Source of the DNA: a virus
Taxonomy: Duplodnaviria > Heunggongvirae > Uroviricota > Caudoviricetes
Length of the DNA: 11,330 bases
Strand: one strand, 5' to 3'
Virus record (IMG/VR): IMGVR_UViG_2548876932_000004
The notes under the pieces were generated by a model, which had not been told where the DNA came from, searched no databases, and worked only from the letters and a program-made list of their open reading frames with translations. Positions within the stretch are counted from its first letter, which is position 1, and every line of letters starts with the position of its first letter. Below, in pieces: positions 1 through 11,330 of this stretch. Both the position numbers and the translations under genes were made by a program.

Positions 1-54
1 CTGGCAGCCTGAGTTCACAGATAAAACACTCTCCAGGATTCCCGGGGCGGTTCA
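1..54 (+). mobile_element. Right terminus of an IS629-like (IS3 family) insertion sequence; element body lies upstream of the window
   Basis: Positions 29..54 read ...CTCTCCAGGATTCCCGGGGCGGTTCA, whose reverse complement TGAACCGCCCCGGGAATCCTGGAGAG matches the terminal inverted repeat I recall for IS629/IS1203 (TG...CA ends typical of IS3 family). Positions 1..12 (CTG GCA GCC TGA) fit the end of a transposase orfB (...L A A stop). Identification is from memory, not a search. Confidence 0.75.
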
Positions 55-258
55 GTCAGACGGGAGTTTGCCATCTGGGCAAAAGCGGTCGTGCAGGTGC
101 TGGAGACATTACCGGATATTCTGGAACGTGACTGCGGCCTGCAGCCTGCCGCTGTGAGCCGTGTTCAGTCCATTATTGATGATCTGCGCGATCAGATAGC
201 CCTGCGGGTGACCGAAGCAGGTGCGGATGATGAGGAGGAATTACAGCAGGAGGAGTAA
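55..258 (+). pseudogene. 3' fragment of terminase small subunit gene, 5' part removed by the IS insertion
   Basis: Open frame with no stops from 55 to TAA at 256..258 (67 codons, acidic C-terminus ...EAGADDEEELQQEE), with no start codon of its own after the IS boundary. Its stop overlaps the large terminase ATG (TAATG), the usual small/large terminase coupling arrangement. Confidence 0.6.
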
Positions 259-2360
259 TGCTGAATCAGGAAACCGCAAAGGCAGCACGAACCGATTCAG
301 GTTATATCCTTCGCGCACCGAGACGAATGCGGGTTGCTGATGCCGTTGCTCAGTATATGCGGGTGCCCATGGGGGCCGGGAACTCAGTCCCGTGGGATCC
401 GCTGGTGGCACCGTATGTTATTGAGCCGATGAACTGCCTGGCCTCGCGTGAATACGACGCAGTGATATTTGTTGGCCCGGCACGAACTGGCAAGACTATC
501 GGCCTGATTGACGGCTGGGTGATTTACAACGTGATTTGCGATCCTGCTGATATGCTGATCATTCAGATGACGGAGGAAAAAGCCCGCGAACACTCCAAAA
601 AACGACTTGCCAGAACGTTTCGCGTCAGCCCGGAAGTGGTCAGTCGCCTGAGTCCGAACAAAAATGACAACAACGTTTATGACAGAACATTCCTTGCTGG
701 CAACTACCTGAAAATCGGCTGGCCGTCAGTCAATATCATGTCCTCATCAGATTATAAATGCGTGGCGCTGACGGATTATGACCGTTTTCCGGAAGATATT
801 GATGGCGAGGGGGATGCCTTCTCTCTTGCCTCAAAACGTACCACCACATTTATGTCCAGTGGTATGACGCTGGTGGAGAGTTCCCCCGGCAGGGATGTGA
901 AGGATGTGAAATGGCGACGGACTTCACCGCATGAGGCTCCACCAACCACGGGGATACTGTCGCTCTATAACCGTGGCGATCGCCGTCGCTGGTACTGGCC
1001 CTGTCCACACTGTGGTGAGTATTTTCAGCCCTGCGGCGATGTGGTTGCTGGTTTCCGTGATATTGCCGATCCCGTGCTGGCAAGTGAGGCGGCTTATATT
1101 CAGTGTCCTTCCTGTTCAGGACGGATTATGCCTGAACAAAAACGTGAGCTGAACGGACGTGGGGTCTGGTTGCGGGATGGTGAATCCATCAATGCGGATG
1201 GCAGTCGTTATGGTGATCCCCGACGCTCACGTATTGCGTCATTCTGGATGGAGGGTCCGGCAGCTGCTTACCAGACACTCTCGCAACTCGTTTACAAACT
1301 GCTTGCTGCAGAACAGGAATACGAGACAACCGGAAGTGAAGAAACACTCAAGACGGTTATCAATACCGACTGGGGATTACCTTATCTTCCCCGTGCCAGC
1401 ATGGAGCAACGAAAAAGTGAACTGCTTGAGCAGCGGGCAGAGCCAGTTCCTTCCCGCAGTGTGCCGGATGGCGTTAATTTCCTGGTGGCGACAGTTGATG
1501 TGCAGGCGGGACGTCATCGCCGTTTTGTGGTTCAGGTAACGGGCTATGGCAGCCGTGGCGAACGCTGGATTATTGATCGTTACAACATCACGCAGTCATT
1601 GCGCGGTGACAGCGACGGGGAGAGCCAGCGAATTGATCCGGCCAGCTATCCGGAAGACTGGGATGTCCTGCTGACGGATGTTTTTCATAAAAGCTGGCCG
1701 CTGGCCTCCGATCCTTCTCAACAAATGCGACTGATGGCAATGGCGGTGGACTCCGGCGGTGAAGACGGAGTCACTGATAATGCCTATAAATTCTGGCGTC
1801 GTTGCCGTCGTGATGGCCTTGGTAAACGTATTTACCTGTTTAAGGGCGACAGCATCCGGCGCGCAAAACTGATCACCCGTACATTCCCTGATAACACCGG
1901 ACGAACGGGCCGACGGGCGCAGGCCGCAGGTGATGTACCGCTCTGGCTTCTTCAGACGGATGCCCTGAAAGACCGGGTGAATAACGCGTTATGGCGTGAC
2001 TCGCCAGGTCCCGGCTATGTGCATTTCCCTGACTGGCTGGGGAGCTGGTTTTACGACGAACTGACGTATGAAGAGCGGAGCAGTGACGGGAAATGGAGTA
2101 AGCCGGGTCGCGGTGCCAACGAAGCTTTTGACCTGATGGTGTATGCCGAGGCTCCGGTCATTCTGCATGGATACGAAAAGATCCGCTGGCCGGATGCACC
2201 GGAGTGGGCGAGCCGGGAAACCTGGCTGGAGTGTGTCCCGGACAGTACCGAACCGTCACCCACACCGGAACCGGTATCCACGCCTGTTAAAAAACAAAAA
2301 CGGAAGAAAACAGTAACTGACGATGTTAACCCCTGGCTGACTTCCGGAGGATGGTTATGA
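258..2360 (+). CDS. A: Terminase large subunit, lambda gpA family
   Basis: 700 aa ORF. Walker A P-loop VGPARTGKT near the N-terminus. CPHCGEYF...CPSC motif resembles the lambda gpA ACPHCGEE...CEHNAC region. FDLMVYAEA resembles gpA ALDCFVYALAA. Sits directly upstream of W-like and portal genes. Confidence 0.93.
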   Translation: MLNQETAKAARTDSGYILRAPRRMRVADAVAQYMRVPMGAGNSVPWDPLVAPYVIEPMNCLASREYDAVIFVGPARTGKTIGLIDGWVIYNVICDPADMLIIQMTEEKAREHSKKRLARTFRVSPEVVSRLSPNKNDNNVYDRTFLAGNYLKIGWPSVNIMSSSDYKCVALTDYDRFPEDIDGEGDAFSLASKRTTTFMSSGMTLVESSPGRDVKDVKWRRTSPHEAPPTTGILSLYNRGDRRRWYWPCPHCGEYFQPCGDVVAGFRDIADPVLASEAAYIQCPSCSGRIMPEQKRELNGRGVWLRDGESINADGSRYGDPRRSRIASFWMEGPAAAYQTLSQLVYKLLAAEQEYETTGSEETLKTVINTDWGLPYLPRASMEQRKSELLEQRAEPVPSRSVPDGVNFLVATVDVQAGRHRRFVVQVTGYGSRGERWIIDRYNITQSLRGDSDGESQRIDPASYPEDWDVLLTDVFHKSWPLASDPSQQMRLMAMAVDSGGEDGVTDNAYKFWRRCRRDGLGKRIYLFKGDSIRRAKLITRTFPDNTGRTGRRAQAAGDVPLWLLQTDALKDRVNNALWRDSPGPGYVHFPDWLGSWFYDELTYEERSSDGKWSKPGRGANEAFDLMVYAEAPVILHGYEKIRWPDAPEWASRETWLECVPDSTEPSPTPEPVSTPVKKQKRKKTVTDDVNPWLTSGGWL

Positions 2361-2569
2361 ACCAGAATGATATCGAAGCCATGATTCAGCGTTATACGGA
2401 AGCTGAAATGGCGGTGCTGGACGGAAAATCCGTCACCTTTAATGGTCAGCAGATGACCATGGAAAACTTATCTGAGATCCGGCAGGGACGGCAGGAGTGG
2501 GAGCGCCGCCTTGCGGCTCTGATTACACGACGACGGGGGCATCCCGGGTACCGGCTTGCGAGGTTCTGA
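2357..2569 (+). CDS. W: gpW-like head-tail joining / head completion protein
   Basis: About 70 aa. C-terminal ...RRRGHPGY resembles lambda gpW ...QRRRGPAGFYV. The ATG at 2357 has a GGAGG 6 nt upstream; the alternative ATG at 2351 has zero spacing. Overlaps the terminase stop (ATGA) and the portal start (TGATG at 2567..2571). Confidence 0.7.
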   Translation: MNQNDIEAMIQRYTEAEMAVLDGKSVTFNGQQMTMENLSEIRQGRQEWERRLAALITRRRGHPGYRLARF

Positions 2570-4077
2570 TGGCAATTCTTGATGATGTGATTGGCGTTTT
2601 TTCACCAGGATGGAAAGCGGCAAGGCTGCGTTCCCGTGCGGTGATCCAGGCTTATGAGGCCGTAAAAACGACGCGGACACACAAAGCCCGGCGGGAAAAC
2701 CGAACTGCCGACCAGTTAAGCCAGTACGGGGCCGTGTCGTTACGTGAGCAGGCCCGTTACCTTGATAACAACCACGATCTGGTCATTGGTGTATTTGACA
2801 AGCTGGAAGAACGGGTGGTGGGGAAAAACGGGATTATTGTCGAGCCACATCCGGTATTACGCAATGGGGCCATTGCCCGTGATCTGGCAGCGGAGATACG
2901 CACCCGATGGAGTGAATGGTCTGTCAGTCCGGAAGTCACCGGGCAGTTTACCCGTCCGATGCTGGAACGTCTGATGTTGCGTACCTGGCTGCGCGATGGT
3001 GAGGTGTTTGCCCAGATGGTTTCCGGGCGCATAAACAGCCTGACGCCTTCTGCCGGTGTTCATTTCTGGCTGGAGGCGCTCGAGCCGGACTTTATTCCCA
3101 TGACCAGTGATGAGAGCAACAGGCTGAATCAGGGCGTGTTTGTTGATGACTGGGGGCGTCCCGAAAAATATCTGGTGTATAAAAGCCGTCCCGTATCCGG
3201 ACGGCAGATGGAAACCAAAGAAGTGGATGCAGAGCGAATGCTGCATCTTAAATTTGTTCGCCGTCTGCACCAGATGCGCGGGACGTCTTTGTTGTCCGGT
3301 GTGCTGATCCGCCTCAGTGCCCTGAAAGAGTATGAAGATTCTGAGCTGACTGCAGCAAGGATCGCCGCTGCTCTGGGGATGTACATCCGGAAAGGCGACG
3401 GGCAGAGCTATGAACCGGATGGTAATGGCAGCAAGGATAAGGAACGCGAGCTTACCATTCAGCCAGGCATTATTTACGACGATCTGAAACCCGGCGAAGA
3501 AATCGGAATGGTGAAGTCGGATCGCCCCAATCCTAATCTTGAAACTTTTCGTAATGGTCAGTTGCGTGCCGTGGCGGCGGGCAGTCGTCTGAGTTTTTCC
3601 AGTACAGCGCGCAACTATAACGGCACTTACAGCGCCCAGCGTCAGGAGCTGGTTGAATCCACTGATGGCTACCTGATCCTGCAGGACTGGTTTATTGGTG
3701 CCGTCACCCGCCCGATGTATCGTGCCTGGCTGAAACAGGCTGTGGCATCCGGTGTTATCAGGCTACCCCGCGATCTTGATCGTTCTTCACTGTATACCGC
3801 GGTGTATTCCGGACCGGTGATGCCGTGGATTGACCCTGTTAAGGAGGCTGAGGCCTGGAAAATTCAGATTCGTGGTGGAGCGGCGACAGAATCAGACTGG
3901 GTACGTGCAGGTGGTCGTAATCCGGATGATGTCAAACGTCGGCGCAAGGCCGAAATTGATGAAAACCGCAAGCTGGATCTGGTATTTGATACCGATCCGG
4001 CCAGTGATAAAGGAGGCAGCAGTGCCGCAACGAAACGACAGGAGCCGCAGCACACCGACGACCAGTCCGAAGAATAA
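2569..4077 (+). CDS. Portal protein
   Basis: About 502 aa from the ATG at 2569 (MAILDDVIGVF...), overlapping the W-like stop. Size and position between terminase/W and the head protease are canonical. The track ORF begins at a GTG at 2497 inside the W-like gene, which I consider a less likely start. Confidence 0.88.
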   Translation: MAILDDVIGVFSPGWKAARLRSRAVIQAYEAVKTTRTHKARRENRTADQLSQYGAVSLREQARYLDNNHDLVIGVFDKLEERVVGKNGIIVEPHPVLRNGAIARDLAAEIRTRWSEWSVSPEVTGQFTRPMLERLMLRTWLRDGEVFAQMVSGRINSLTPSAGVHFWLEALEPDFIPMTSDESNRLNQGVFVDDWGRPEKYLVYKSRPVSGRQMETKEVDAERMLHLKFVRRLHQMRGTSLLSGVLIRLSALKEYEDSELTAARIAAALGMYIRKGDGQSYEPDGNGSKDKERELTIQPGIIYDDLKPGEEIGMVKSDRPNPNLETFRNGQLRAVAAGSRLSFSSTARNYNGTYSAQRQELVESTDGYLILQDWFIGAVTRPMYRAWLKQAVASGVIRLPRDLDRSSLYTAVYSGPVMPWIDPVKEAEAWKIQIRGGAATESDWVRAGGRNPDDVKRRRKAEIDENRKLDLVFDTDPASDKGGSSAATKRQEPQHTDDQSEE

Positions 4078-4090
4078 TTCCTGGTTCAGG

Positions 4091-6049
4091 ATGCAGGCAG
4101 GTCACCAGAGTGACGCGGATATTTATATTTATGACGAGATTGGTTTCTGGGGTGTTACGGCGAAGCAGTTTATCAGTGATCTGAATGCACTGGGCGATAT
4201 CACCCACATTAATCTCCATATTAATTCACCGGGTGGCGATGTCTTTGAAGGCATCGCCATTTTTAATGCACTGAAAACACATGGTGCGTCCATTACCGTT
4301 TATGTCGACGGTGTGGCGGCGTCAATGGCGTCGGTCATTGCGATGGTGGGAAACCCGGTCATTATGCCGGAAAACTCCTTCATGATGATTCATAAACCAT
4401 TTGGCTTTACGGGCGGTGATGCGGAGGACATGCGCACCTATGCCGACCTGCTCGATAAAGTTGAGGCGGTTCTGTTACCCGCTTATGCACAGAAAACCGG
4501 GAAAACCACCGATGAAATTGCTGCCATGCTGGCGGATGAGACCTGGATGTCCGGTGCCGAATGTCTGGCACAGGGATTTGCTGATCAGGTGACACCAGCC
4601 GTTAAGGCAATGGCATGTATTCAGTCAAAACGTACAGAGGAATTTAAAAAGATGCCGGAATCCATTCGAAATATGATTACTCCGCCACGCAACAGTGCTC
4701 CACGCGTACAGGATGATGGACCTGCAGCCTCCCGGACGCCAGTGCAGGCAGCAGCACCCGTGGTGGATGAAAACAGCATCCGTGCGCAGGTCCTGGCAGA
4801 GCAAAAAGCGCGTGTAAACGGTATTAATGATCTGTTTGCCATGTTTGGTGGGCGTTATCAGTCGCTGCAGGCTCAGTGTCTTGCCGATCCTGAATGTTCG
4901 CTGGAGCAGGCCCGCGAAAAGCTGTTGAACGAGATGGGGCGCGAGTCCACGCCATCCAATAAAAATACCCCGGCTCATATTTATGCCGGTAACGGTAATT
5001 TTGTGGGGGACGGGATCCGCCAGGCGCTGATGGCGCGCGCCGGGTTTGAAAAAACCGAACGTGATAATGTCTACAACGGGATGACCCTGCGTGAATATGC
5101 CCGTATGTCACTGACTGAACGTGGTATTGGTGTTTCCAGTTATAACCCGATGCAGATGGTCGGTGCGGCGTTCACACACAGTACGTCTGACTTCGGTAAT
5201 ATTCTGCTGGATGTTGCGAACAAAGCCATTCTGCAGGGCTGGGAAGATGCCCCTGAAACCTATGAACAGTGGACGCGGAAAGGTCAGTTGTCTGATTTTA
5301 AAATTGCCCATCGTGTGGGTATGGGGGGCTTCAGTGCTCTGCGTCAGGTGCGTGAAGGGGCAGAATATAAATACGTCACCACCGGAGATAAACAGGCCAC
5401 TATTGCACTGGCGACCTATGGCGAGCTGTTCAGTATCACCCGTCAGGCCATTATCAATGATGATCTGAATATGCTGACCGATGTCCCGATGAAGCTGGGC
5501 CGTGCGGCGAAATCCACTATTGCCGATCTGGTTTATGCCATTCTGACGTCTAACCCGAAAATCTCCACAGATAATGTAAGTCTGTTCGATAAAGCGAAAC
5601 ATGCAAACGTACTGGAGAGCGCGGCAATGGACGTGGCATCGCTGGATAAAGCCCGCCAGTTGATGCGCGTTCAGAAAGAGGGTGAGCGTCATCTGAATAT
5701 TCGTCCTGCGTTCGTACTGGTACCGACGGCGATGGAGTCTGTTGCTAACCAGGTCATTCGCTCCTCAAGTGTCAAGGGGGCTGACATTAACGCCGGTATT
5801 ATTAACCCGGTGAAAGATTTTGCGACCGTTATTGCAGAGCCTCGTCTTGATGATAACAGCCAGACCACCTTCTACCTGGCTGCGTCCAAAGGCTCCGATA
5901 CGATTGAAGTGGCTTATCTCAACGGTGTGGATACGCCATATATTGATCAGATGGAGGGCTTCAGTGTGGATGGCGTGACAACGAAAGTACGTATTGACGC
6001 TGGTGTTGCGCCAGTTGATCACCGCGGCCTAGTGAAATGTACGGCGTAA
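4091..6049 (+). CDS. Head maturation protease (ClpP-like, S14) - scaffold-like linker - major capsid protein (HK97 fold) encoded as one continuous ORF
   Basis: 652 codons with no internal stop. The N-terminal ~190 aa has a ClpP-like layout (IYIYDEIG..., INSPGGDVFEGIAIFNAL, candidate catalytic Ser in GVAASMASV, His in MMIHKP). The middle ~120 aa is Pro/Ala-rich then helical (ENSIRAQVLAEQKARVNGINDLF...). The C-terminal ~340 aa has the length and character of an HK97-type major capsid protein. Start is placed at ATG 4091, 13 nt after the portal stop; the track ORF start at 3830 is a TTG whose upstream extension overlaps the portal and looks non-protein-like. Confidence 0.88.
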   Translation: MQAGHQSDADIYIYDEIGFWGVTAKQFISDLNALGDITHINLHINSPGGDVFEGIAIFNALKTHGASITVYVDGVAASMASVIAMVGNPVIMPENSFMMIHKPFGFTGGDAEDMRTYADLLDKVEAVLLPAYAQKTGKTTDEIAAMLADETWMSGAECLAQGFADQVTPAVKAMACIQSKRTEEFKKMPESIRNMITPPRNSAPRVQDDGPAASRTPVQAAAPVVDENSIRAQVLAEQKARVNGINDLFAMFGGRYQSLQAQCLADPECSLEQAREKLLNEMGRESTPSNKNTPAHIYAGNGNFVGDGIRQALMARAGFEKTERDNVYNGMTLREYARMSLTERGIGVSSYNPMQMVGAAFTHSTSDFGNILLDVANKAILQGWEDAPETYEQWTRKGQLSDFKIAHRVGMGGFSALRQVREGAEYKYVTTGDKQATIALATYGELFSITRQAIINDDLNMLTDVPMKLGRAAKSTIADLVYAILTSNPKISTDNVSLFDKAKHANVLESAAMDVASLDKARQLMRVQKEGERHLNIRPAFVLVPTAMESVANQVIRSSSVKGADINAGIINPVKDFATVIAEPRLDDNSQTTFYLAASKGSDTIEVAYLNGVDTPYIDQMEGFSVDGVTTKVRIDAGVAPVDHRGLVKCTA

Positions 6050-6072
6050 ACGTCGCAGACAACAACTCTGAT

Positions 6073-6092
6073 GGCCCGTAAGGGCTTTTTTT
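6073..6092 (+). terminator. Putative rho-independent terminator after the capsid gene
   Basis: GCCC-GTAA-GGGC (short GC stem with a GNRA-type tetraloop) at 6074..6085, followed by 7 T at 6086..6092, 24 nt after the capsid stop codon. Confidence 0.55.
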
Positions 6093-6135
6093 GTACCTGA
6101 AATCAGCCCCTGAACGGGGCTGTGCGGAGACAGTT

Positions 6136-6459
6136 ATGGCAAAGAATTTTGTAGAAGAAGGAAAAACGGTGGCGATTGTTGCCAGTGCAGCCATCAGCAG
6201 CGGAGATCTGGTGCAGGTGGGTGATGTTTTTGCGGTGGCGCTGACCGATATTCCACAGGGAGAAACAGGCGACGGCATAACCGAAGGTGTGTTTATGCTG
6301 CCTAAGCTGAAAACGGATGACATGAAAACGGGTAAGAAGGTTTATATGAAGTCAGGAAAAGTTCAGCTGACTAACAGCGGCTCTGATCCGCTGGTCGGGG
6401 TTGTCTGGGCAGATGCCGGAACCAGTGCAGAAGAAGTGCCGGTAAAACTCAATGTCTGA
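6136..6459 (+). CDS. Small conserved phage head-region protein of unknown function (possibly DUF2190-like)
   Basis: 107 aa from ATG 6136 with GGAGA 5 nt upstream (the track ORF starts at an upstream TTG). Gly/Val-rich, beta-like composition. Sits immediately after the capsid gene. No similarity to lambda gpD or gpFI that I can see. Confidence 0.7.
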   Translation: MAKNFVEEGKTVAIVASAAISSGDLVQVGDVFAVALTDIPQGETGDGITEGVFMLPKLKTDDMKTGKKVYMKSGKVQLTNSGSDPLVGVVWADAGTSAEEVPVKLNV

Positions 6460-6727
6460 TCCCTTTTCCCGGCTGGCAGCGCGTATGGATGCGATCACGG
6501 TCAGAAAGATGGGAAAGACAGCCTCGATTAATGATGTCGATATGACTGTGATCCCGGGAGAAACACTGGCAGAGCTGAATGCTCTGTCCGGACCTGCGGT
6601 CTCTCTGGTGGTGTTTTCTTCGGGATACCGCCCACGGCGCGGGGATCGCGTTGTTTATGACGGACAACAATGGACGGTCACACGGCATGAACGCTTTAAC
6701 GGTAAGCCAATGATCTTTATTGAGTAA
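6452..6727 (+). CDS. Head-tail joining / head completion protein, gpFII-like
   Basis: 91 aa. Overlaps the upstream gene by 8 nt. The motif pattern ...RKMGKTASI...SLVVF...RRGD...W.V.R resembles lambda gpFII (...RGYMGTSATI...SLFV...RRGD...FWVDR). Confidence 0.7.
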   Translation: MSDPFSRLAARMDAITVRKMGKTASINDVDMTVIPGETLAELNALSGPAVSLVVFSSGYRPRRGDRVVYDGQQWTVTRHERFNGKPMIFIE

Positions 6728-6738
6728 AGAGGTGTGGG

Positions 6739-7317
6739 ATGAAGGGGCTTGAGAATGCCATCCGCAATCTGAACAGCCTTGATACCCGTATGGTGCCACA
6801 GGCCAGCGCATGGGCGATAAACCGTGTGGCACAGAAAGCGGTCTCGGTTGCCACCCGGCAGGTTGCCGGGAATACCGTTGCGGGAGATAACCAGGTGAAA
6901 GGGATCCCCCTGAAACTGGTACGTCAGCGTGTCCGGGTGTTTAAAGCCAGTCCGTCAGGAAAAATGACGGCCAGGATCCGCGTTAACCGAGGCAATCTGC
7001 CCGCCATTAAGCTGGGGACAGCCCGGGTCAGACTGGCCCGGCGTGGTGGAAAACTGCAGTACCGTGGCAGTGTGCTGAAGGTGGGTAAATATCTTTTCCG
7101 GGATGCGTTTATTCAGCAACTGGCGAATGGTCGCTGGCATGTGATGCGACGTATTGATGGCAAAAATCGTTACCCCATTGATGTGGTGAAAATCCCGCTG
7201 TCCGGACCGCTGACACAGGCATTTGAAGATGCCCGCGACCACATCATTGCTGCGGAAATGCCGAAACAGCTGGGGTATGCACTGAAACAACAACTGAGGT
7301 TATGGCTGACCCGATGA
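6739..7317 (+). CDS. Tail completion protein, lambda gpZ-like (by position and size)
   Basis: 192 aa, the same length as lambda gpZ. Good RBS AAAGAGG 6 nt upstream of the ATG. Located directly before the U homolog. Confidence 0.75.
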   Translation: MKGLENAIRNLNSLDTRMVPQASAWAINRVAQKAVSVATRQVAGNTVAGDNQVKGIPLKLVRQRVRVFKASPSGKMTARIRVNRGNLPAIKLGTARVRLARRGGKLQYRGSVLKVGKYLFRDAFIQQLANGRWHVMRRIDGKNRYPIDVVKIPLSGPLTQAFEDARDHIIAAEMPKQLGYALKQQLRLWLTR

Positions 7318-7715
7318 ACCGACATACACAAATCCGCCAGGCCGTACTGGCACGCCTTCGGGAACAGTGTGGAGACAGCGCCACGTTTTTTGACGGGCTT
7401 CCGGCATTTATTGATGCGCAGGAACTGCCTGCCGTGGCGGTGTGGCTGAGTGATGCTCAGTACACCGGAAAAATGACGGATGAAGATGACTGGCAGGCTG
7501 TTCTGCATATTGCCGTCTTCATCCGGGCACAGGCACCGGATTCAGAGCTGGATATGTGGATGGAGAGCACCATTTTCCCTGCCCTGAATGATGTACCGGC
7601 ACTTTCCGGACTCATCGACATCCTGATCCCACTCGGTTTTAACTATCAACGTGATAATGAGATGGCCACCTGGGCGATGGCGGAAATCACGTACCAGATC
7701 ACGTACACGAATTAA
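7314..7715 (+). CDS. U: Tail terminator protein, lambda gpU homolog
   Basis: Clear similarity to lambda gpU as I recall it: ATFFDG.PA..D....PAVAV.L....YTG...D.D.WQA.LHI.VF..AQ.PDSELD.WMES.I.P...D.PALS.LI; the C-terminal ITYQITY matches gpU LTYVITY. The ATG at 7314 overlaps the Z-like stop (ATGA); the alternative ATG at 7302 would add 4 aa. Confidence 0.9.
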   Translation: MNRHTQIRQAVLARLREQCGDSATFFDGLPAFIDAQELPAVAVWLSDAQYTGKMTDEDDWQAVLHIAVFIRAQAPDSELDMWMESTIFPALNDVPALSGLIDILIPLGFNYQRDNEMATWAMAEITYQITYTN

Positions 7716-7725
7716 GGAGGTGGTA

Positions 7726-8469
7726 ATGACCACACCAAATCCACTGGCAAAGACGAAAGGTGCGGGGACGACGTTCTGGATGTATACCGGCAACGGCGAT
7801 GCGTTTGCGAACCCTTTGTCGGACACTGACTGGCTGCGTCTTGCGATGGTGAAGGATCTGCAACCTGGCGAAATGACCGCTGATGCAGAAGATGACACTT
7901 ATCTCGATGATGAAGATGCAGACTGGAAAACGACAACCCAGGGGCAGAAATCCGTCGGTGATACTTCGGCGACGCTGGCCTGGCGTCCGGGTGACAGCGG
8001 GCAGAAAAAACTGGTTCAGTTGTTCGACTCCGGTGAAGTCTGCGCGTTTCGTATCAAATATCCCAACGGTACTGTTGATGTTTTCCGTGGCTGGCTGAGT
8101 TCACTGGGTAAAACCATTGCCTCAAAAGACGTGATGACCCGCACAGTGAAAATCAGCGGTGTGGGGCGTCCGTATCTGGCAGAAGAAGGCACTGAAACCG
8201 TGGGCGTTACCGGGCTGACGGTGGCACCGGCATCTGCCAGTGTAAAAGTGGGAGCAACCACCACGCTGACCTTTACAGTAAAACCTGACGGAGCCAGTGA
8301 CAAAGCGATCAGTGTGCATTCGACAGATCCACAGACTGCCACGGTGACCCTGAACGGGCTTGTGGCCACGGTGAAAGGCGTGAAGCAGGGCAGTGTCAGC
8401 ATTGTGGGCATGACTTCTGACGGCGATTTTGTGGCAGTGGCTACGGTGGCTGTCAGCGCCGCAGGTTAA
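7726..8469 (+). CDS. V: Major tail (tube) protein, lambda gpV homolog with C-terminal Ig-like (Big_2-type) domain
   Basis: 247 aa. Strong similarity to lambda gpV throughout (KGAGTT.W.Y.G.GD..ANPLSD.DW.RLA.VKDL.PGE.TA...DD.YLDDEDADW..T.QGQKS.GDTS.TLAW.PG..., PNGTVDVFRGW.SS.GK). The C-terminal ~90 aa (GLTVAPASASVKVG.TTTLTFTV.PDGASDK...) has bacterial Ig-like character. AAGGAGG RBS at 7714..7720. The track ORF start at 7651 is an upstream in-frame extension overlapping U and is rejected. Confidence 0.95.
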   Translation: MTTPNPLAKTKGAGTTFWMYTGNGDAFANPLSDTDWLRLAMVKDLQPGEMTADAEDDTYLDDEDADWKTTTQGQKSVGDTSATLAWRPGDSGQKKLVQLFDSGEVCAFRIKYPNGTVDVFRGWLSSLGKTIASKDVMTRTVKISGVGRPYLAEEGTETVGVTGLTVAPASASVKVGATTTLTFTVKPDGASDKAISVHSTDPQTATVTLNGLVATVKGVKQGSVSIVGMTSDGDFVAVATVAVSAAG

Positions 8470-8489
8470 CAGGACGATACTCATCATTT

Positions 8490-8513
8490 GCCCCGATTAT
8501 CCGGGGCTTTTTT
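8490..8513 (+). terminator. Putative rho-independent terminator between V and G
   Basis: GCCCCG (8490..8495), loop ATTATC, CGGGGC (8502..8507), followed by TTTTTT (8508..8513), 21 nt after the V stop codon. Confidence 0.6.
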
Positions 8514-8526
8514 GCAGGTGGAGAAC

Positions 8527-8916
8527 ATGATGTTTCTGAAACAGGGCACGTTTAATTATGAAAAGCAGTCCGTGGTGCTCAGTGAGCTGTCCGGGCTGCA
8601 GAGAATTGAATATCTGGCGTTTGTTCAGCAGCGAACGGCAAAGTTTGATGCCGAAGAGGGAGAACTGCCGGAGGCTGAACGACAGATTGCTTTTCTGCGG
8701 ATGGGGATGGATATCAATGCCTGGCTGGTTTCCCGCTCACTGTGGAATGCGGATCAGTCTAAGGATGTAGAGACGCTTTGCGCATCCGTTATTACAACAT
8801 GGTCGTATGATGCCCTGGGTGCGGGGGCGGAGATGGTTCTGTCGCTGAGCGGTATGGGGACCATTGATAATGCCGGGGATGATGAGCATGAGGCGCTGAC
8901 GCCGGAAAAGTCCTGA
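8527..8916 (+). CDS. G: Tail assembly chaperone, lambda gpG homolog
   Basis: About 129 aa. (M)MFLKQGTFNYEKQSVVLSELSGLQRIEYLAF... aligns with lambda gpG MFLKTESFEHNGVTVTLSELSALQRIEHLAL... Start is ATG 8527 or 8530, with GGAG at 8520..8523. The track start at 8488 is a TTG inside the terminator. Confidence 0.9.
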   Translation: MMFLKQGTFNYEKQSVVLSELSGLQRIEYLAFVQQRTAKFDAEEGELPEAERQIAFLRMGMDINAWLVSRSLWNADQSKDVETLCASVITTWSYDALGAGAEMVLSLSGMGTIDNAGDDEHEALTPEKS

Positions 8917-9254
8917 CGCGGGAAATGCAGTTTGTCATGCGGCTTGCCCGGGAGTTCCGACGGGCAGACTGGCGGCGGATGCTGTCGGAAATGTCGGCCA
9001 CTGAGCTTGGTGAGTGGGGCGATTATTTCCGGATGCAGAGCTTCAGTGATGTGTGGATGGATGCGCAGTTTGCCTCGCTGAAGGCATTGATCGTGAGAAT
9101 GGTGTCCGGTAGCAGTGATGCTGCGGTGGCTGATTTCAGCCTTTTACCGGAAGAGAACGGGATACCGGAGCGAACGGACGAAGAACTGATGCATCTTGGG
9201 GAAGGTATTTCCGGAGGTGTGCGTTATGGACCAGATAGCCAACCTGGTCATTGA
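8527..9254 (+). CDS. T: Tail assembly chaperone G-T fusion product (gpGT-like), made by -1 frameshift near 8904..8910
   Basis: The downstream ORF (frame 0, open 8892..9254) has no RBS or start of its own positioned for independent translation and lies in the -1 frame relative to G. This is the conserved arrangement in lambda-like tail gene clusters, immediately upstream of the tape measure gene. Product about 242 aa. Confidence 0.7.
8904..8910 (+). promoter_or_regulatory. Candidate -1 programmed ribosomal frameshift slippery site (G GAA AAG) for G-T fusion
   Basis: The T frame is -1 relative to G and is open only from 8892. G stops at 8914..8916. The only A-rich slippery candidate in this 25 nt overlap is GGAAAAG at 8904..8910. 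Confidence 0.6.
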
Positions 9255-11277
9255 TTTGGGGATTGATGCGGCAGAGTTTAAAAATGAAATTCCCCGTATC
9301 AAAAACCTTCTGAATGGTGCAGCCAGCGATGCAGAACGGTCTTCTGCCCGTATGCAGCGTTTTATGGAGCGTCAGACTCAGGCCGCCCGGCAGACAATGC
9401 AGGCGGCTTCTTCGGCTGCAACTGCCGCATCCGTCCATGCGCAGACGGTGGAGAAGAGCGCACAGGCTCATGAACGCATGGCCCGCGAGGTGGAGCAAAC
9501 CCGCCAGCGTATGGAGGCACTGAGCCAGAAAATGCGCGAGGAACAGGCGCAGGCCATGGCTCTGGCGGAGGCTCAGGATAAAGCGGCTGCCGCGTTTTAT
9601 CGTCAGATTGACAGTGTGAAACAGGCCAGTGCGGGGCTGCAGGAATTACAGCGTATTCAGCAGCAGATCCGACAGGCTAGAAACAGTGGCGGGATTGGTC
9701 AGCAGGATTATCTGGCGCTGATTTCTGAGGTTACGGCGAAAACCCGTGTTCTTACGCAGGCTGAGGCAGAGGCTACCCGACAGAAAGTGGCGTTTATCCG
9801 TCAGCTTAAAGAGCAGGCAACCCGCCAGAATCTTTCTTCTTCTGAGTTGCTTCGTGCTAAGGCTGCCCAGCTGGGGGTAAGCAGTGCTGCAGAAGTGTAT
9901 ATCCGCAAAATGGAGCAGGCAGGAAAAGCCACGCATTCGCTGGGTCTGAAAAGTGCAGCGGCCCGCCAGGAGATAGGCGTTCTGATAGGTGAACTGGTTC
10001 GCGGCAATTTAGGTGCGCTGAGGGGATCCGGGATAACGCTGGCTAACCGTGCCGGATGGATAGACACACTGATGTCACCGAAAGGCATGATGCTGGGCGG
10101 GGTTATTGGCGGTATTGCCGCGGCCGTCTATGGTCTGGGTAAAGCCTGGTATGATGGTCAGAAGGAGGGGGAAGAATTTAACCGCCAGTTGTCGCTGACG
10201 GGGCATTATGCCGGAGTCACTGCCGGGCAGCTGTGGACGCTCAGTCGTGCTATTTCCGGGAATGGTATCACGCAACATGCTGCAGCCGGTGCGCTGGCTC
10301 AGGTGGTGGGGAGTGGCGCATTTCGTGGAAACGATATCGGTATGGTGGCGAGAGCTGCCGCACAGATGGAGCGATCGGTTGGCCAGTCGGTCAGCGATAC
10401 CATAAGTCAGTTTAAGCGGCTGAAGGATGATCCTGTAAATGCCGCGAAGGCTCTGGACAATGAGCTGCATTTTCTTACTGCCACTCAGCTTGAGCAGATA
10501 CGTGTCCTTGGGGATCAGGGACGGTCCAGTGATGCTGCACGGATAGCCATGTCTGCACTGGCAGAGGAAACCGGTCGGCGTACTGCGGATATTGATAATA
10601 ACCTCAATGCGCTTGGCAGTACGCTGAAGTATCTGTCTGATTTGTGGAGTCGTTTCTGGGATGCGGCCATGAATATTGGTCGTGAAGACTCGCTGGATGA
10701 ACAGATTGCCGCTTTACAGGAGAAAGTGTCGCGGGCGAAAAGACTCCCCTGGACGGCATCATCTTCTCAGGTTGAATACGATCAGCAGCGTCTTAACGAT
10801 CTTCAGGAGAAAAAACGCCAGAAGGATTTGCAGGATGCAAAAGAGCAGGCAGAGCGGAATTATCAGGAGCAACAGAAACGACGTAATGCTGAAAATGCTG
10901 CACTGAACCGGATGAATGAATCGGAAGCAGCACGACATCAGCGTGAAATTGCGCGTATTAATTCCATGCAGTACGCCGATCAGGCTGTCAGGGATGCAGC
11001 GATACAACGTGAAAATGAACGTTACGAGAAAGCCCTGGCATCCGGTAAGAAAAAAACACGCGAAACCCGTAATGATGAGGCCACCCGGTTATTGCTGCAG
11101 TACAGTCAGCAACAGGCACAGGTGGAAGGACAGATTGCTGCTGCAAGACAGTCAGCAGGCATTGCCACTGAAAAGATGACAGAAGCGCATAAACAGCTTC
11201 TGGCTCTGCAGCAGCGCATCAGCGATCTGGACGGGAAAAAACTGACGACAGATGAAAAGAGTGTGCTGGCCCGTTGA
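9226..11277 (+). pseudogene. H: Tail tape measure protein, lambda gpH homolog, 3'-truncated by an insertion at 11275
   Basis: N-terminus MDQIANLVIDLGIDAAEFK resembles lambda gpH MAEPVGDLVVDLSLDAARF. The central region (...LSLTGHYAGVTAGQLWTLSRA...WSRFWDAAMNIGREDSLDEQI...) aligns with the gpH region (...LVLSGNQAGLTADRMLVLSRA...FKSMWDAVLDIGRPDTAQEM...). GGAGG RBS 8 nt before ATG 9226. The frame stops at TGA 11275..11277 after 683 aa, where the lambda homolog would continue about 350 aa further. The stop codon coincides with the first bases of an IS-like terminus. Confidence 0.85.
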
Positions 11278-11330
11278 GGTAGCCTGAGTTTAACGGACAC
11301 TCCTTCCTGAAATAGAATGGCATCAGAAGG
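11275..11330 (+). mobile_element. Probable left terminus of an IS3-family insertion sequence (possibly IS600-like), continuing beyond the window
   Basis: Abrupt loss of the gpH reading frame at a sequence starting TGAGGTAGCCTGAGTTTAACGGACAC... (TG start typical of IS3-family IRs). About 50 nt of leader ends in AGAAGG at the window edge, consistent with an RBS for a transposase orfA just downstream. The IS600 assignment is a tentative recollection and is not verified. Confidence 0.5.

Follow-up and report, generated by a model that had tools for sequence, protein, structure and literature searches.

Head gene module and start of the fusion gene

The analysed window, an 11,330-nucleotide stretch of a Caudoviricetes genome (IMG/VR record IMGVR_UViG_2548876932_000004), matches an E. 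coli O145 prophage at 100% identity and phage mEp460 at 99%, and all features described here lie on its + strand. The head module is centred on a single coding sequence, 4022..6049 (675 codons and a TAA stop), in which a ClpP-like prohead protease, a scaffold-like segment and a major capsid protein follow one another in one frame. It is preceded by a lambda-family portal gene at 2569..4077 (Pfam Phage_portal_2, E 6.5e-82; RefSeq coordinates), the 3' end of which overlaps the 5' end of the fusion gene by 56 nt. Directly after the capsid reading frame, a terminator-like GC hairpin with a T-run is found at 6073..6096; the mEp460 annotation places a rho-independent terminator at the corresponding position, and taken by itself the short stretch has a fold that is statistically not distinctive (z -1.55). 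The next gene, 6136..6459, encodes a head decoration or cement protein of the DUF2190 type (Pfam Phage_cement_2, E 2.7e-20); its equivalent is annotated as 'head decoration' in mEp460, a gene of this type occupies the same position in Gifsy-2, and the product is likely a capsid stabiliser. No separate capsid or scaffold gene was found in the head module, either by the Pfam search or in the mEp460 annotation. The strain in which this sequence occurs unchanged carries a small terminase gene cut short by an IS3 element; therefore, this prophage copy may never build heads on its own.

The initial annotation described the fusion as a single 652-codon reading frame. The frame 4091..6049 is indeed open, with 652 sense codons followed by TAA, but it continues upstream of ATG 4091, which is codon 24 of the coding sequence 4022..6049, and the proposed start was not upheld. 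When all in-frame start codons were scored for ribosome-binding sites, the strongest match was the Shine-Dalgarno sequence AAGGAGG at 4010..4016, 5 nt before GTG 4022, while no such sequence was found upstream of ATG 4091. Both AAGGAGG and the GTG codon are kept in the diverged relatives Klebsiella phage Kp4865-4 and phage CP-1639, and an NSWF/NSWY motif in the N-terminal extension is conserved among homologues, Gifsy-2 included. The RefSeq coding sequence WP_001136588.1, located in the 100% identical E. coli O145 prophage, has the same coordinates as 4022..6049. Because of the upstream AAGGAGG, its conservation in diverged relatives and its use by RefSeq, GTG 4022 is the more likely start, giving 675 codons rather than the 652 counted from ATG 4091, and the ATG start in the mEp460 record is probably 23 codons too short.

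Domain organisation of the encoded protein

The presence of a ClpP-like domain at the N-terminus, proposed in the initial annotation, was borne out by a Pfam CLP_protease match (E 4.6e-36) to residues 23–168 of the frame 4091..6049, and the ClpP fold of the domain was confirmed. In the 675-residue protein, used for numbering below unless stated otherwise, the serine protease domain spans residues 20–195 (4079..4606). The NCBIfam domain model for ClpP-related head maturation proteases was matched with 217 bits (cut-off 120), while the canonical ClpP equivalog models scored far under their cut-offs (for example, 60 versus 308.6 bits for TIGR00493); therefore, the protein is related to ClpP and is not a cellular ClpP. 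The usual working form of ClpP is a heptameric or tetradecameric ring acting with a Clp ATPase, whereas here the protease domain would be tethered 1:1 to the hexamers and pentamers formed by the capsid protein. The predicted catalytic residues are Ser101 (codon 4322..4324, motif GVAASMA) and His124 (codon 4391..4393, motif MIHKP), aligned with the ClpP active-site serine and histidine, respectively. Both are invariant in all 135 diverse full-length homologues, with identities down to about 34%, in an alignment whose overall column identity is 27%. Alignment to ClpP places Glu173 (codon 4538..4540) at the position of the triad aspartate; this position is acidic but usually not Asp, with Glu in 117 and Asp in 12 of the 135 homologues.

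No Pfam family was matched between the protease and capsid domains (residues 196–370). This region was characterised by alignment conservation and an AlphaFold model, both of which agree with the Pro/Ala-rich and helical middle part noted initially. It begins with a post-protease segment of two short helices (residues 196–222, 4607..4687) carrying a conserved [FY]-x-x-x-P motif (F208 and P212), followed by a Pro/Ala-rich disordered linker of variable length (residues 223–249, 4688..4768), which shows the lowest conservation and the most gaps in the alignments and has pLDDT below 50 at residues 223–245. A moderately conserved helical scaffold-like segment then occupies residues 250–370 (4769..5131), with AlphaFold helices at 250–273, 280–288, 294–306, 327–340 and 356–365; the loop 307–326 is a plausible candidate for a cleavage region. 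The size of this segment resembles that of the HK97 delta domain, which comprises 102 amino acids (PMC8508860).

The HK97-fold major capsid protein domain (residues 371–675, 33.1 kDa) is encoded at 5132..6046. Its assignment to the Phage_capsid_4 / Mu gpT-like group relies on the Pfam Phage_capsid_4 match (residues 354–649 of the frame 4091..6049, E 6e-55) and on the presence of the E-loop hairpin, spine helix and A domain of the HK97 fold. A capsid domain at the C-terminus had thus been correctly predicted, but not its boundary at 4950, since the Pfam capsid core begins at about 5150 and the interval 4950–5150 still belongs to the conserved helical region that precedes it. The AlphaFold monomer built from the 135-sequence alignment has a mean pLDDT of 87.9 and a pTM of 0.58, which leaves the inter-domain arrangement uncertain.

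Family membership and proposed capsid maturation

The NCBIfam model NF045540 (scaf_prot_MCP1), named 'ClpP-like prohead protease/major capsid protein fusion protein', was matched with 984 bits, the cut-off being 475, and residues 9–651 of the queried sequence were aligned to positions 2–651 of the 652-position profile; RefSeq gives the identical protein the same name. PHROG 133 was matched end to end with E = 0. Judged from its sequence, the protein is a typical member of the NF045540 / PHROG 133 family, and with full-length family profiles matched, the single-frame arrangement is far beyond chance. Both domains occur in 135 of the best 148 cluster representatives at 50% identity, down to about 34% identity. 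Matches over 80% or more of the protein were obtained in 80 phage records, with Klebsiella (74% identity) and Pseudomonas (56.5%) phages among them, and in none of these 80 does a stop codon separate the domains. Functional, plaque-forming phages such as mEp460, cdtI, Ayreon and HannyBb likewise encode the fusion without interruption, the genes of mEp460, Ayreon and HannyBb being 98–99% identical to this one. The lost stop considered earlier as a possible origin of the fusion is effectively ruled out by this conservation. The remark that such an arrangement is known in some prophage families also holds, as evidenced by the Gifsy-2 tripartite type and by the dedicated NCBIfam model. The protease–scaffold–capsid fusion gene is real, ordinary and already described, and E. 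coli prophages often carry it. This example adds little, the arrangement having been published, studied experimentally in Gifsy-2 and named in the NCBI annotation rules.

Phage records often label the gene only as 'head maturation protease', 'Clp protease', 'Nu3' or 'protease/scaffold', and genomes carrying such partial labels then seem to be without a major capsid protein. One survey did not recover an HK97-fold capsid protein for Gifsy-2 (PMC8814770).

Taken together, the domain content, orthology and gene order indicate that 4022..6049 is very probably an orthologue of the Gifsy-2-type tripartite capsid gene of lambdoid prophages, producing one 73-kDa polyprotein that would process itself after assembly. 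The sequence of assembly steps, the self-cleavage and what becomes of the fragments are proposed by analogy with Gifsy-2, HK97 and lambda. The C-terminal HK97-fold domain would build the procapsid shell around the portal, with the helical middle segment acting as a built-in scaffold similar to the HK97 delta domain, and the scaffold segment and ClpP-fold protease domain would point to the procapsid interior. After assembly, the protease, using Ser101, His124 and Glu173, would cleave the polyprotein in the linker and the scaffold region, so that the N-terminal part of about 40 kDa would be degraded and exit, while a mature capsid protein of about 33–40 kDa would stay. DNA packaging would then lead to shell expansion, and the cement protein encoded at 6136..6459 could stabilise the expanded shell. 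A literature search for virion proteomics or N-terminal sequences of this phage or mEp460, and for usable processing data on mEp460-like phages, returned none.

An alternative route to the mature shell is a nested gene pair similar to lambda C/Nu3, in which the polyprotein is accompanied by a product of an internal start, best placed at ATG 4652 (Met211). This codon lies in the post-protease segment exactly at the protease/scaffold boundary, and initiation there would yield a 50.6-kDa scaffold–capsid protein lacking the protease and resembling HK97 gp5, so that the protease would be sub-stoichiometric in the procapsid. A consideration in favour is internal space: at 1:1 stoichiometry a T=7 procapsid would need room for about 415 copies of the 40-kDa internal part, according to our own estimate based on the geometry reported for Gifsy-2. 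The GAGGA...ATG context is kept in Gifsy-2 and a Klebsiella phage, but GAGGA also belongs to two consecutive Glu codons within a conserved peptide, and its retention is thus confounded by coding constraint. The Shine-Dalgarno match itself, GAGG 11 nt upstream, is weak and its spacing long; no other in-frame start with a Shine-Dalgarno sequence was found at residues 170–350, and none of the in-frame ATG, GTG or TTG codons in the interdomain region is preceded by a good one. Met is present at position 211 in just 15 of the 135 homologues, whereas the neighbouring Pro212 is present in 129; therefore, an internal start is probably not a family feature. The initial impression that internal starts are not evident from the sequence is consistent with these data, ATG 4652 being only a weak candidate. 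One relative (P0165/L004) has its two parts split over different frames, with the downstream gene called from the equivalent Met-Pro; however, the split is due to a 1-nt frameshift at the domain boundary, the genome is a draft whose prophage context is scrambled, and this relative was rejected as a case of naturally split protease and scaffold–capsid genes. On balance, a nested arrangement is unlikely, and the same low likelihood applies to the narrower proposal that in the enterobacterial branch ATG 4652 serves as a second start, from which the protease-less scaffold–capsid protein is made in addition to the polyprotein. If true, the ratio of the two products would determine how much protease is present and how crowded the procapsid interior becomes, and the strategy would be a hybrid of lambda C/Nu3 and HK97.

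Two further explanations were weighed. The N-terminal ClpP-like domain could be catalytically dead and serve as a scaffold or core only, any processing being performed by a host protease; the third triad residue, Glu instead of the canonical ClpP Asp, could be read in this way. However, the invariance of Ser101 and His124 against the much lower overall column identity is a maintained active-site signature, and the match to the head maturation protease model points in the same direction, making loss of activity highly improbable. As for an accidental fusion or pseudogene, formed when separate protease–scaffold and capsid genes were joined through stop loss or a frameshift in a decaying prophage, the IS-truncated small terminase in a source-like strain indicates that decay is under way nearby, and several database entries of the family are chimeric or truncated. 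Nevertheless, the same frame is intact in plaque-forming phages and Gifsy-2, both domains are retained across the 135 of the best 148 representatives to about 34% identity, and the module has no separate capsid or scaffold gene, which reduces the probability of this explanation almost to nil. The self-processing polyprotein of the Gifsy-2 type is therefore the preferred reading.

Comparison with known capsid gene systems

The Gifsy-2 tripartite capsid gene and the T=7 geometry of its capsid are reportedly the subject of a study by Effantin et al. (2010, Virology 402:355-365). Genes of this type are characterised by release of the mature capsid protein through proteolysis and by a T=7 capsid bearing decoration trimers; of these traits, the module described here shows the decoration gene. 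The Gifsy-2 protein (NC_010393, CDS 22471..24561) shares 70% identity and 84% positives with the protein studied here over 669 amino acids, with identity near 90% in the capsid domain. The three-part layout is the same, an N-terminal ClpP-like protease, a middle part without a matched family (about 200 residues in the Gifsy-2 type, possibly a scaffold) and an HK97-fold capsid protein being encoded in one frame. The neighbourhood also agrees: in both, terminase and portal genes of the lambda type precede the fusion gene, which is followed by a DUF2190 decoration gene and then by Z/U/V-type tail genes. The two genes differ in the N-terminal extension and start context, with GTG and AAGGAGG here and an annotated ATG in Gifsy-2, and in the linker, which is shorter here and of another sequence. 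The hosts are E. coli here and Salmonella for Gifsy-2.

In HK97 the protease is encoded by a separate gene and belongs to a different protease family, whereas here a ClpP-fold protease domain is fused in frame. The system is similar to HK97 gp4 (protease) and gp5 (delta domain plus capsid protein) in that the scaffold, here a putative one, occupies the N-terminal part of the capsid precursor and is, or here would be, removed by the prohead protease, the shell has the HK97 fold, and the protease gene or domain lies directly upstream of the capsid coding sequence (PMC8508860). Another difference is the decoration or cement gene in this module, while the HK97 shell is held by covalent chainmail cross-links (PMC8538268).

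With lambda, the module shares a lambda-family terminase and portal, as well as the location of protease and scaffold in one frame. The lambda protease belongs to the related SppA-like S49 group rather than matching Pfam CLP_protease (S14) as the protease domain does here. The lambda capsid is stabilised by a trimeric protein that is added at its 3-fold axes (PMC8538268; PMC8508860), and the cement protein encoded here is a likely counterpart. However, the lambda capsid protein E is encoded by a separate gene and Nu3 is produced from an internal start within C (PMC8508860), while no convincing internal start was found in the fusion gene described here.

A second, distinct fusion family is represented by NF045541 (scaf_prot_MCP2), to which this protein scores 399 bits versus a cut-off of 525, the match being restricted to the scaffold region onwards. 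One gene for protease, scaffold and HK97-fold capsid protein has also been described as gp5 of Pseudomonas phage MD8 and in MD8-like phages (PMC8508860), and a relative in Pseudomonas phage vB_Pae_CF145a shows 56.5% identity to the E. coli protein over the full length.

Reading frame and domain architecture

The gene combining a ClpP-like prohead protease, a scaffold-like segment, and a major capsid protein was placed by the initial annotation at 4091..6049 on the plus strand. That frame is open, with 652 sense codons followed by TAA, and only its start codon and the capsid-domain boundary required small corrections. The mechanical ORF extends upstream to 3830. When all in-frame starts were compared, GTG 4022 was the only one with a strong ribosome-binding site (AAGGAGG at 4010-4016, plus strand, spacer 5 nt), and no Shine–Dalgarno sequence was found for ATG 4091. 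Klebsiella phage Kp4865-4 and phage CP-1639 share the Shine–Dalgarno sequence and the GTG, which stands 35 codons ahead of the conserved IYDEIG motif, although the residues just after GTG differ there. The N-terminal extension includes a conserved KNNSWFR motif (NSWY in the Gifsy-2 counterpart), and the RefSeq CDS in the identical prophage is exactly 4022..6049 (WP_001136588.1, 675 aa). On these grounds, the gene was taken as 4022..6049 (plus strand, 675 codons, 73.4 kDa), sharing 56 nt with the 3′ end of the portal gene. The ATG start (652 aa) is used in the phage mEp460 (NC_019716; L001, 4352) and cdtI records, whereas bacterial genomes in RefSeq take the GTG further upstream (675 aa); the Shine–Dalgarno evidence in the sequence favours GTG.

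Pfam searches of the 652-aa version assigned CLP_protease to residues 23-168 (E 4.6e-36) and Phage_capsid_4 to residues 354-649 (E 6e-55); Mu-like_gpT matched more weakly, and the middle segment matched no Pfam family. The protein matches NCBIfam NF045540 ('ClpP-like prohead protease/major capsid protein fusion protein') end to end, with 984 bits against a cut-off of 475, as well as the domain model NF045542 ('head maturation protease, ClpP-related') and, over its whole length, PHROG 133 (E = 0). Since its scores are far under the cut-offs of the NCBIfam ClpP equivalog models, it is ClpP-related rather than a cellular ClpP.

From an alignment of 135 diverse full-length homologues, AlphaFold produced a confident model (mean pLDDT 87.9). 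In the numbering of the 675-aa protein, which runs 23 ahead of that of the 652-aa version, it comprises a disordered N-terminus (1-19), a ClpP fold (20-195), two short helices (196-222), a Pro/Ala-rich disordered linker (223-245), helices at 250-273, 280-288, and 294-306, a low-confidence loop (307-326), further helices (327-409), a beta hairpin (419-434), a long helix (483-510), and a beta-rich C-terminal domain extending to residue 675. Three matches to shell proteins each aligned about 240 residues, and the C-terminal part has a remote sequence match to the solved Mu GpT-domain capsid proteins 8rkc and 8rkx (E ~5e-4). The N-terminal protease fold and the C-terminal capsid fold, whose absence would have refuted the initial annotation, are thus both present.

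In an alignment of 135 sequences, with a mean column identity of 27% and identities to the window protein as low as 34%, only Ser101, His124, and Asn529 are invariant. Ser101 (GVAASMA) and His124 (MIHKP) correspond in alignment to the ClpP catalytic Ser and His. Glu173 occupies the Asp position of the ClpP triad, where 117 of the 135 sequences have Glu and 12 have Asp. This conservation pattern indicates a maintained protease active site.

Conservation of the fusion and its genomic setting

A fusion created by the loss of a stop codon should be distinguishable by comparison with relatives, as the initial annotation suggested. A tblastn search against phage genomes found 80 records with at least 80% of the protein covered at one place, including Klebsiella (74% identity) and Pseudomonas (56.5%) phages. 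Exhaustive searching of the representatives of 50%-identity clusters yielded 6,843 matches with E <= 1e-30; of the top 150, most are 640-740 aa long and align in one stretch from about residue 8 to 649 with 34-60% identity. When each domain was searched separately, both were present in 135 of 148 retrieved representatives. Because the full-length architecture is conserved across relatives, a lost-stop origin was rejected. One relative of about 50% identity, P0165 (L004 2411-4386; GCA_000755365.1, BBMQ01000056.1), has the protease and scaffold-capsid parts in different frames: a 1-nt frameshift falls precisely where the protease meets the scaffold, and the downstream ORF starts at the Met-Pro equivalent to Met211-Pro212. 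It was not counted as a natural split, given the 1-nt shift, the draft genome, and the scrambled prophage context; sequencing error or decay may explain the shift, and a genuine split is conceivable.

The protease and capsid domains are highly conserved and the helical segment moderately so; conservation is lowest at residues 196-255, where gaps are numerous. Among close relatives, the linker (4688-4768, residues 223-249) is the part most variable in length: in variants from Shigella, E. coli, and Salmonella it is longer by up to about 15 residues, rich in Thr, Ala, and Gln. In an alignment of 12 close relatives, the shortest linker is that of the window.

E. coli O145 strains such as RM9872 harbour a prophage that matches positions 1..11274 with 100% identity; the match ends within the tape-measure gene and excludes 11275-11330 (56 bases). 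Of 5,426 complete E. coli genomes, 1,799 contain at least 80% of the window. The fusion gene is 99.2-99.7% identical at the nucleotide level to that of phage mEp460 and 98-99% to those of cdtI, Ayreon, HannyBb, phi458, and others. It lies in a lambda-type head-tail module, preceded by genes for the large terminase, a small head-tail protein, and a lambda-family portal, and followed by a terminator-like hairpin, a DUF2190/Phage_cement_2 decoration gene, a Gifsy-2-type head-tail protein gene, and homologues of Z, U, V, G, T, and the tape measure.

The start of the window, to about nt 12, is the very end of an IS3-family transposase CDS, and 52-258 is a 3′ remnant of a small terminase/DUF1441 gene (Pfam DUF1441 profile positions 94-146 of 147), called a pseudogene without its N-terminus by RefSeq in the RM9872 prophage. 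Owing to this loss, this prophage copy is probably unable to package DNA unaided. Directly 3′ of the capsid ORF, before the decoration gene, a GC hairpin with a T-run (6073-6096) coincides with a rho-independent terminator annotated in mEp460; it is short, its folding energy is not distinctive, and it may be a partial terminator tuning the ratio of capsid to downstream products. Homologues of the lambda tail-assembly chaperones G and T lie at 8530-9254, with T lying in frame -1 with respect to G. Lambda's slippery heptamer, GGGAAAG, occurs only at 6511 and not at the G/T junction, so any G-T frameshift would need a different slippery site; the G homologue ends in CCG GAA AAG TCC TGA.

Putative assembly and processing

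The window provides one frame, both folds, a conserved active site, and an adjacent cement-protein gene; in the protein, the flexible, variable linker precedes a helical segment of about 120 residues. By analogy with Gifsy-2, HK97, and lambda, we infer that the polyprotein would co-assemble via its capsid domain around the portal, with the helical segment acting as an internal scaffold akin to the HK97 delta domain. Protease domains concentrated within the shell would cleave the linker and scaffold region, the N-terminal part would be degraded and lost, and the shell would expand on packaging and be locked by the cement protein. The expected position of the mature N-terminus is between the three-helix unit and the capsid core; stand-alone Phage_capsid_4 proteins would start near residue 371. 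The most plausible cleavage places are the 307-326 loop and the 341-375 region, giving an estimated mature capsid protein of about 33-40 kDa.

Residues 1-370 have a computed mass of 40.4 kDa, and with the T=7 geometry reported for Gifsy-2, 415 copies of this 40-kDa part amount to about 17 MDa, which by this rough estimate would fit the procapsid but crowd its interior. This crowding led us to consider an internal start. None of the in-frame starts between the protease and capsid domains has a good Shine–Dalgarno sequence. The best candidate, ATG 4652 (Met211, plus strand), has GAGG 11 nt upstream. This context is retained in Gifsy-2 and a Klebsiella phage but coincides with conserved Glu-Glu codons; Met occurs at this position in only 15 of 135 family sequences, against 129 for the adjacent Pro212. 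A functional internal start is judged very unlikely.

Relation to Gifsy-2 and other known systems

The Gifsy-2 genome carries a counterpart in the equivalent place (22471..24561, 696 aa), whose product is 70% identical and 84% similar to the window protein over 669 residues. Effantin et al. reportedly described in this Gifsy-2 gene an N-terminal ClpP-like protease, a middle domain of some 200 residues that may serve as a scaffold, and a C-terminal major capsid protein. Their cryo-EM reportedly revealed procapsids and capsids of T=7 geometry that fit the capsid protein of HK97 and decoration trimers resembling lambda gpD.

In phage records, the fusion gene carries at least eight product names, including head maturation protease, Major head protein, protease/scaffold, head-tail preconnector protease C, Nu3, and ClpP protease-like/scaffold, and many such genomes consequently seem to be without a capsid gene. 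Retrieval of the HK97-fold capsid protein of Gifsy-2 failed in PMC8814770. Independently, PMC8538268 counts Gifsy-2 with the phages whose 3-fold axes carry a trimeric cement protein, and Pseudomonas MD8-like phages have the same one-gene arrangement (PMC8508860, section 2.5). With the Gifsy-2 study, the MD8-like phages, and NF045540, the arrangement is published, experimentally examined, and included in NCBI naming rules, which bears out the earlier remark that it is known in some prophage families. The initial observation is real and its interpretation correct, and the fusion gene typifies a family that already has a name and has been studied by experiment.
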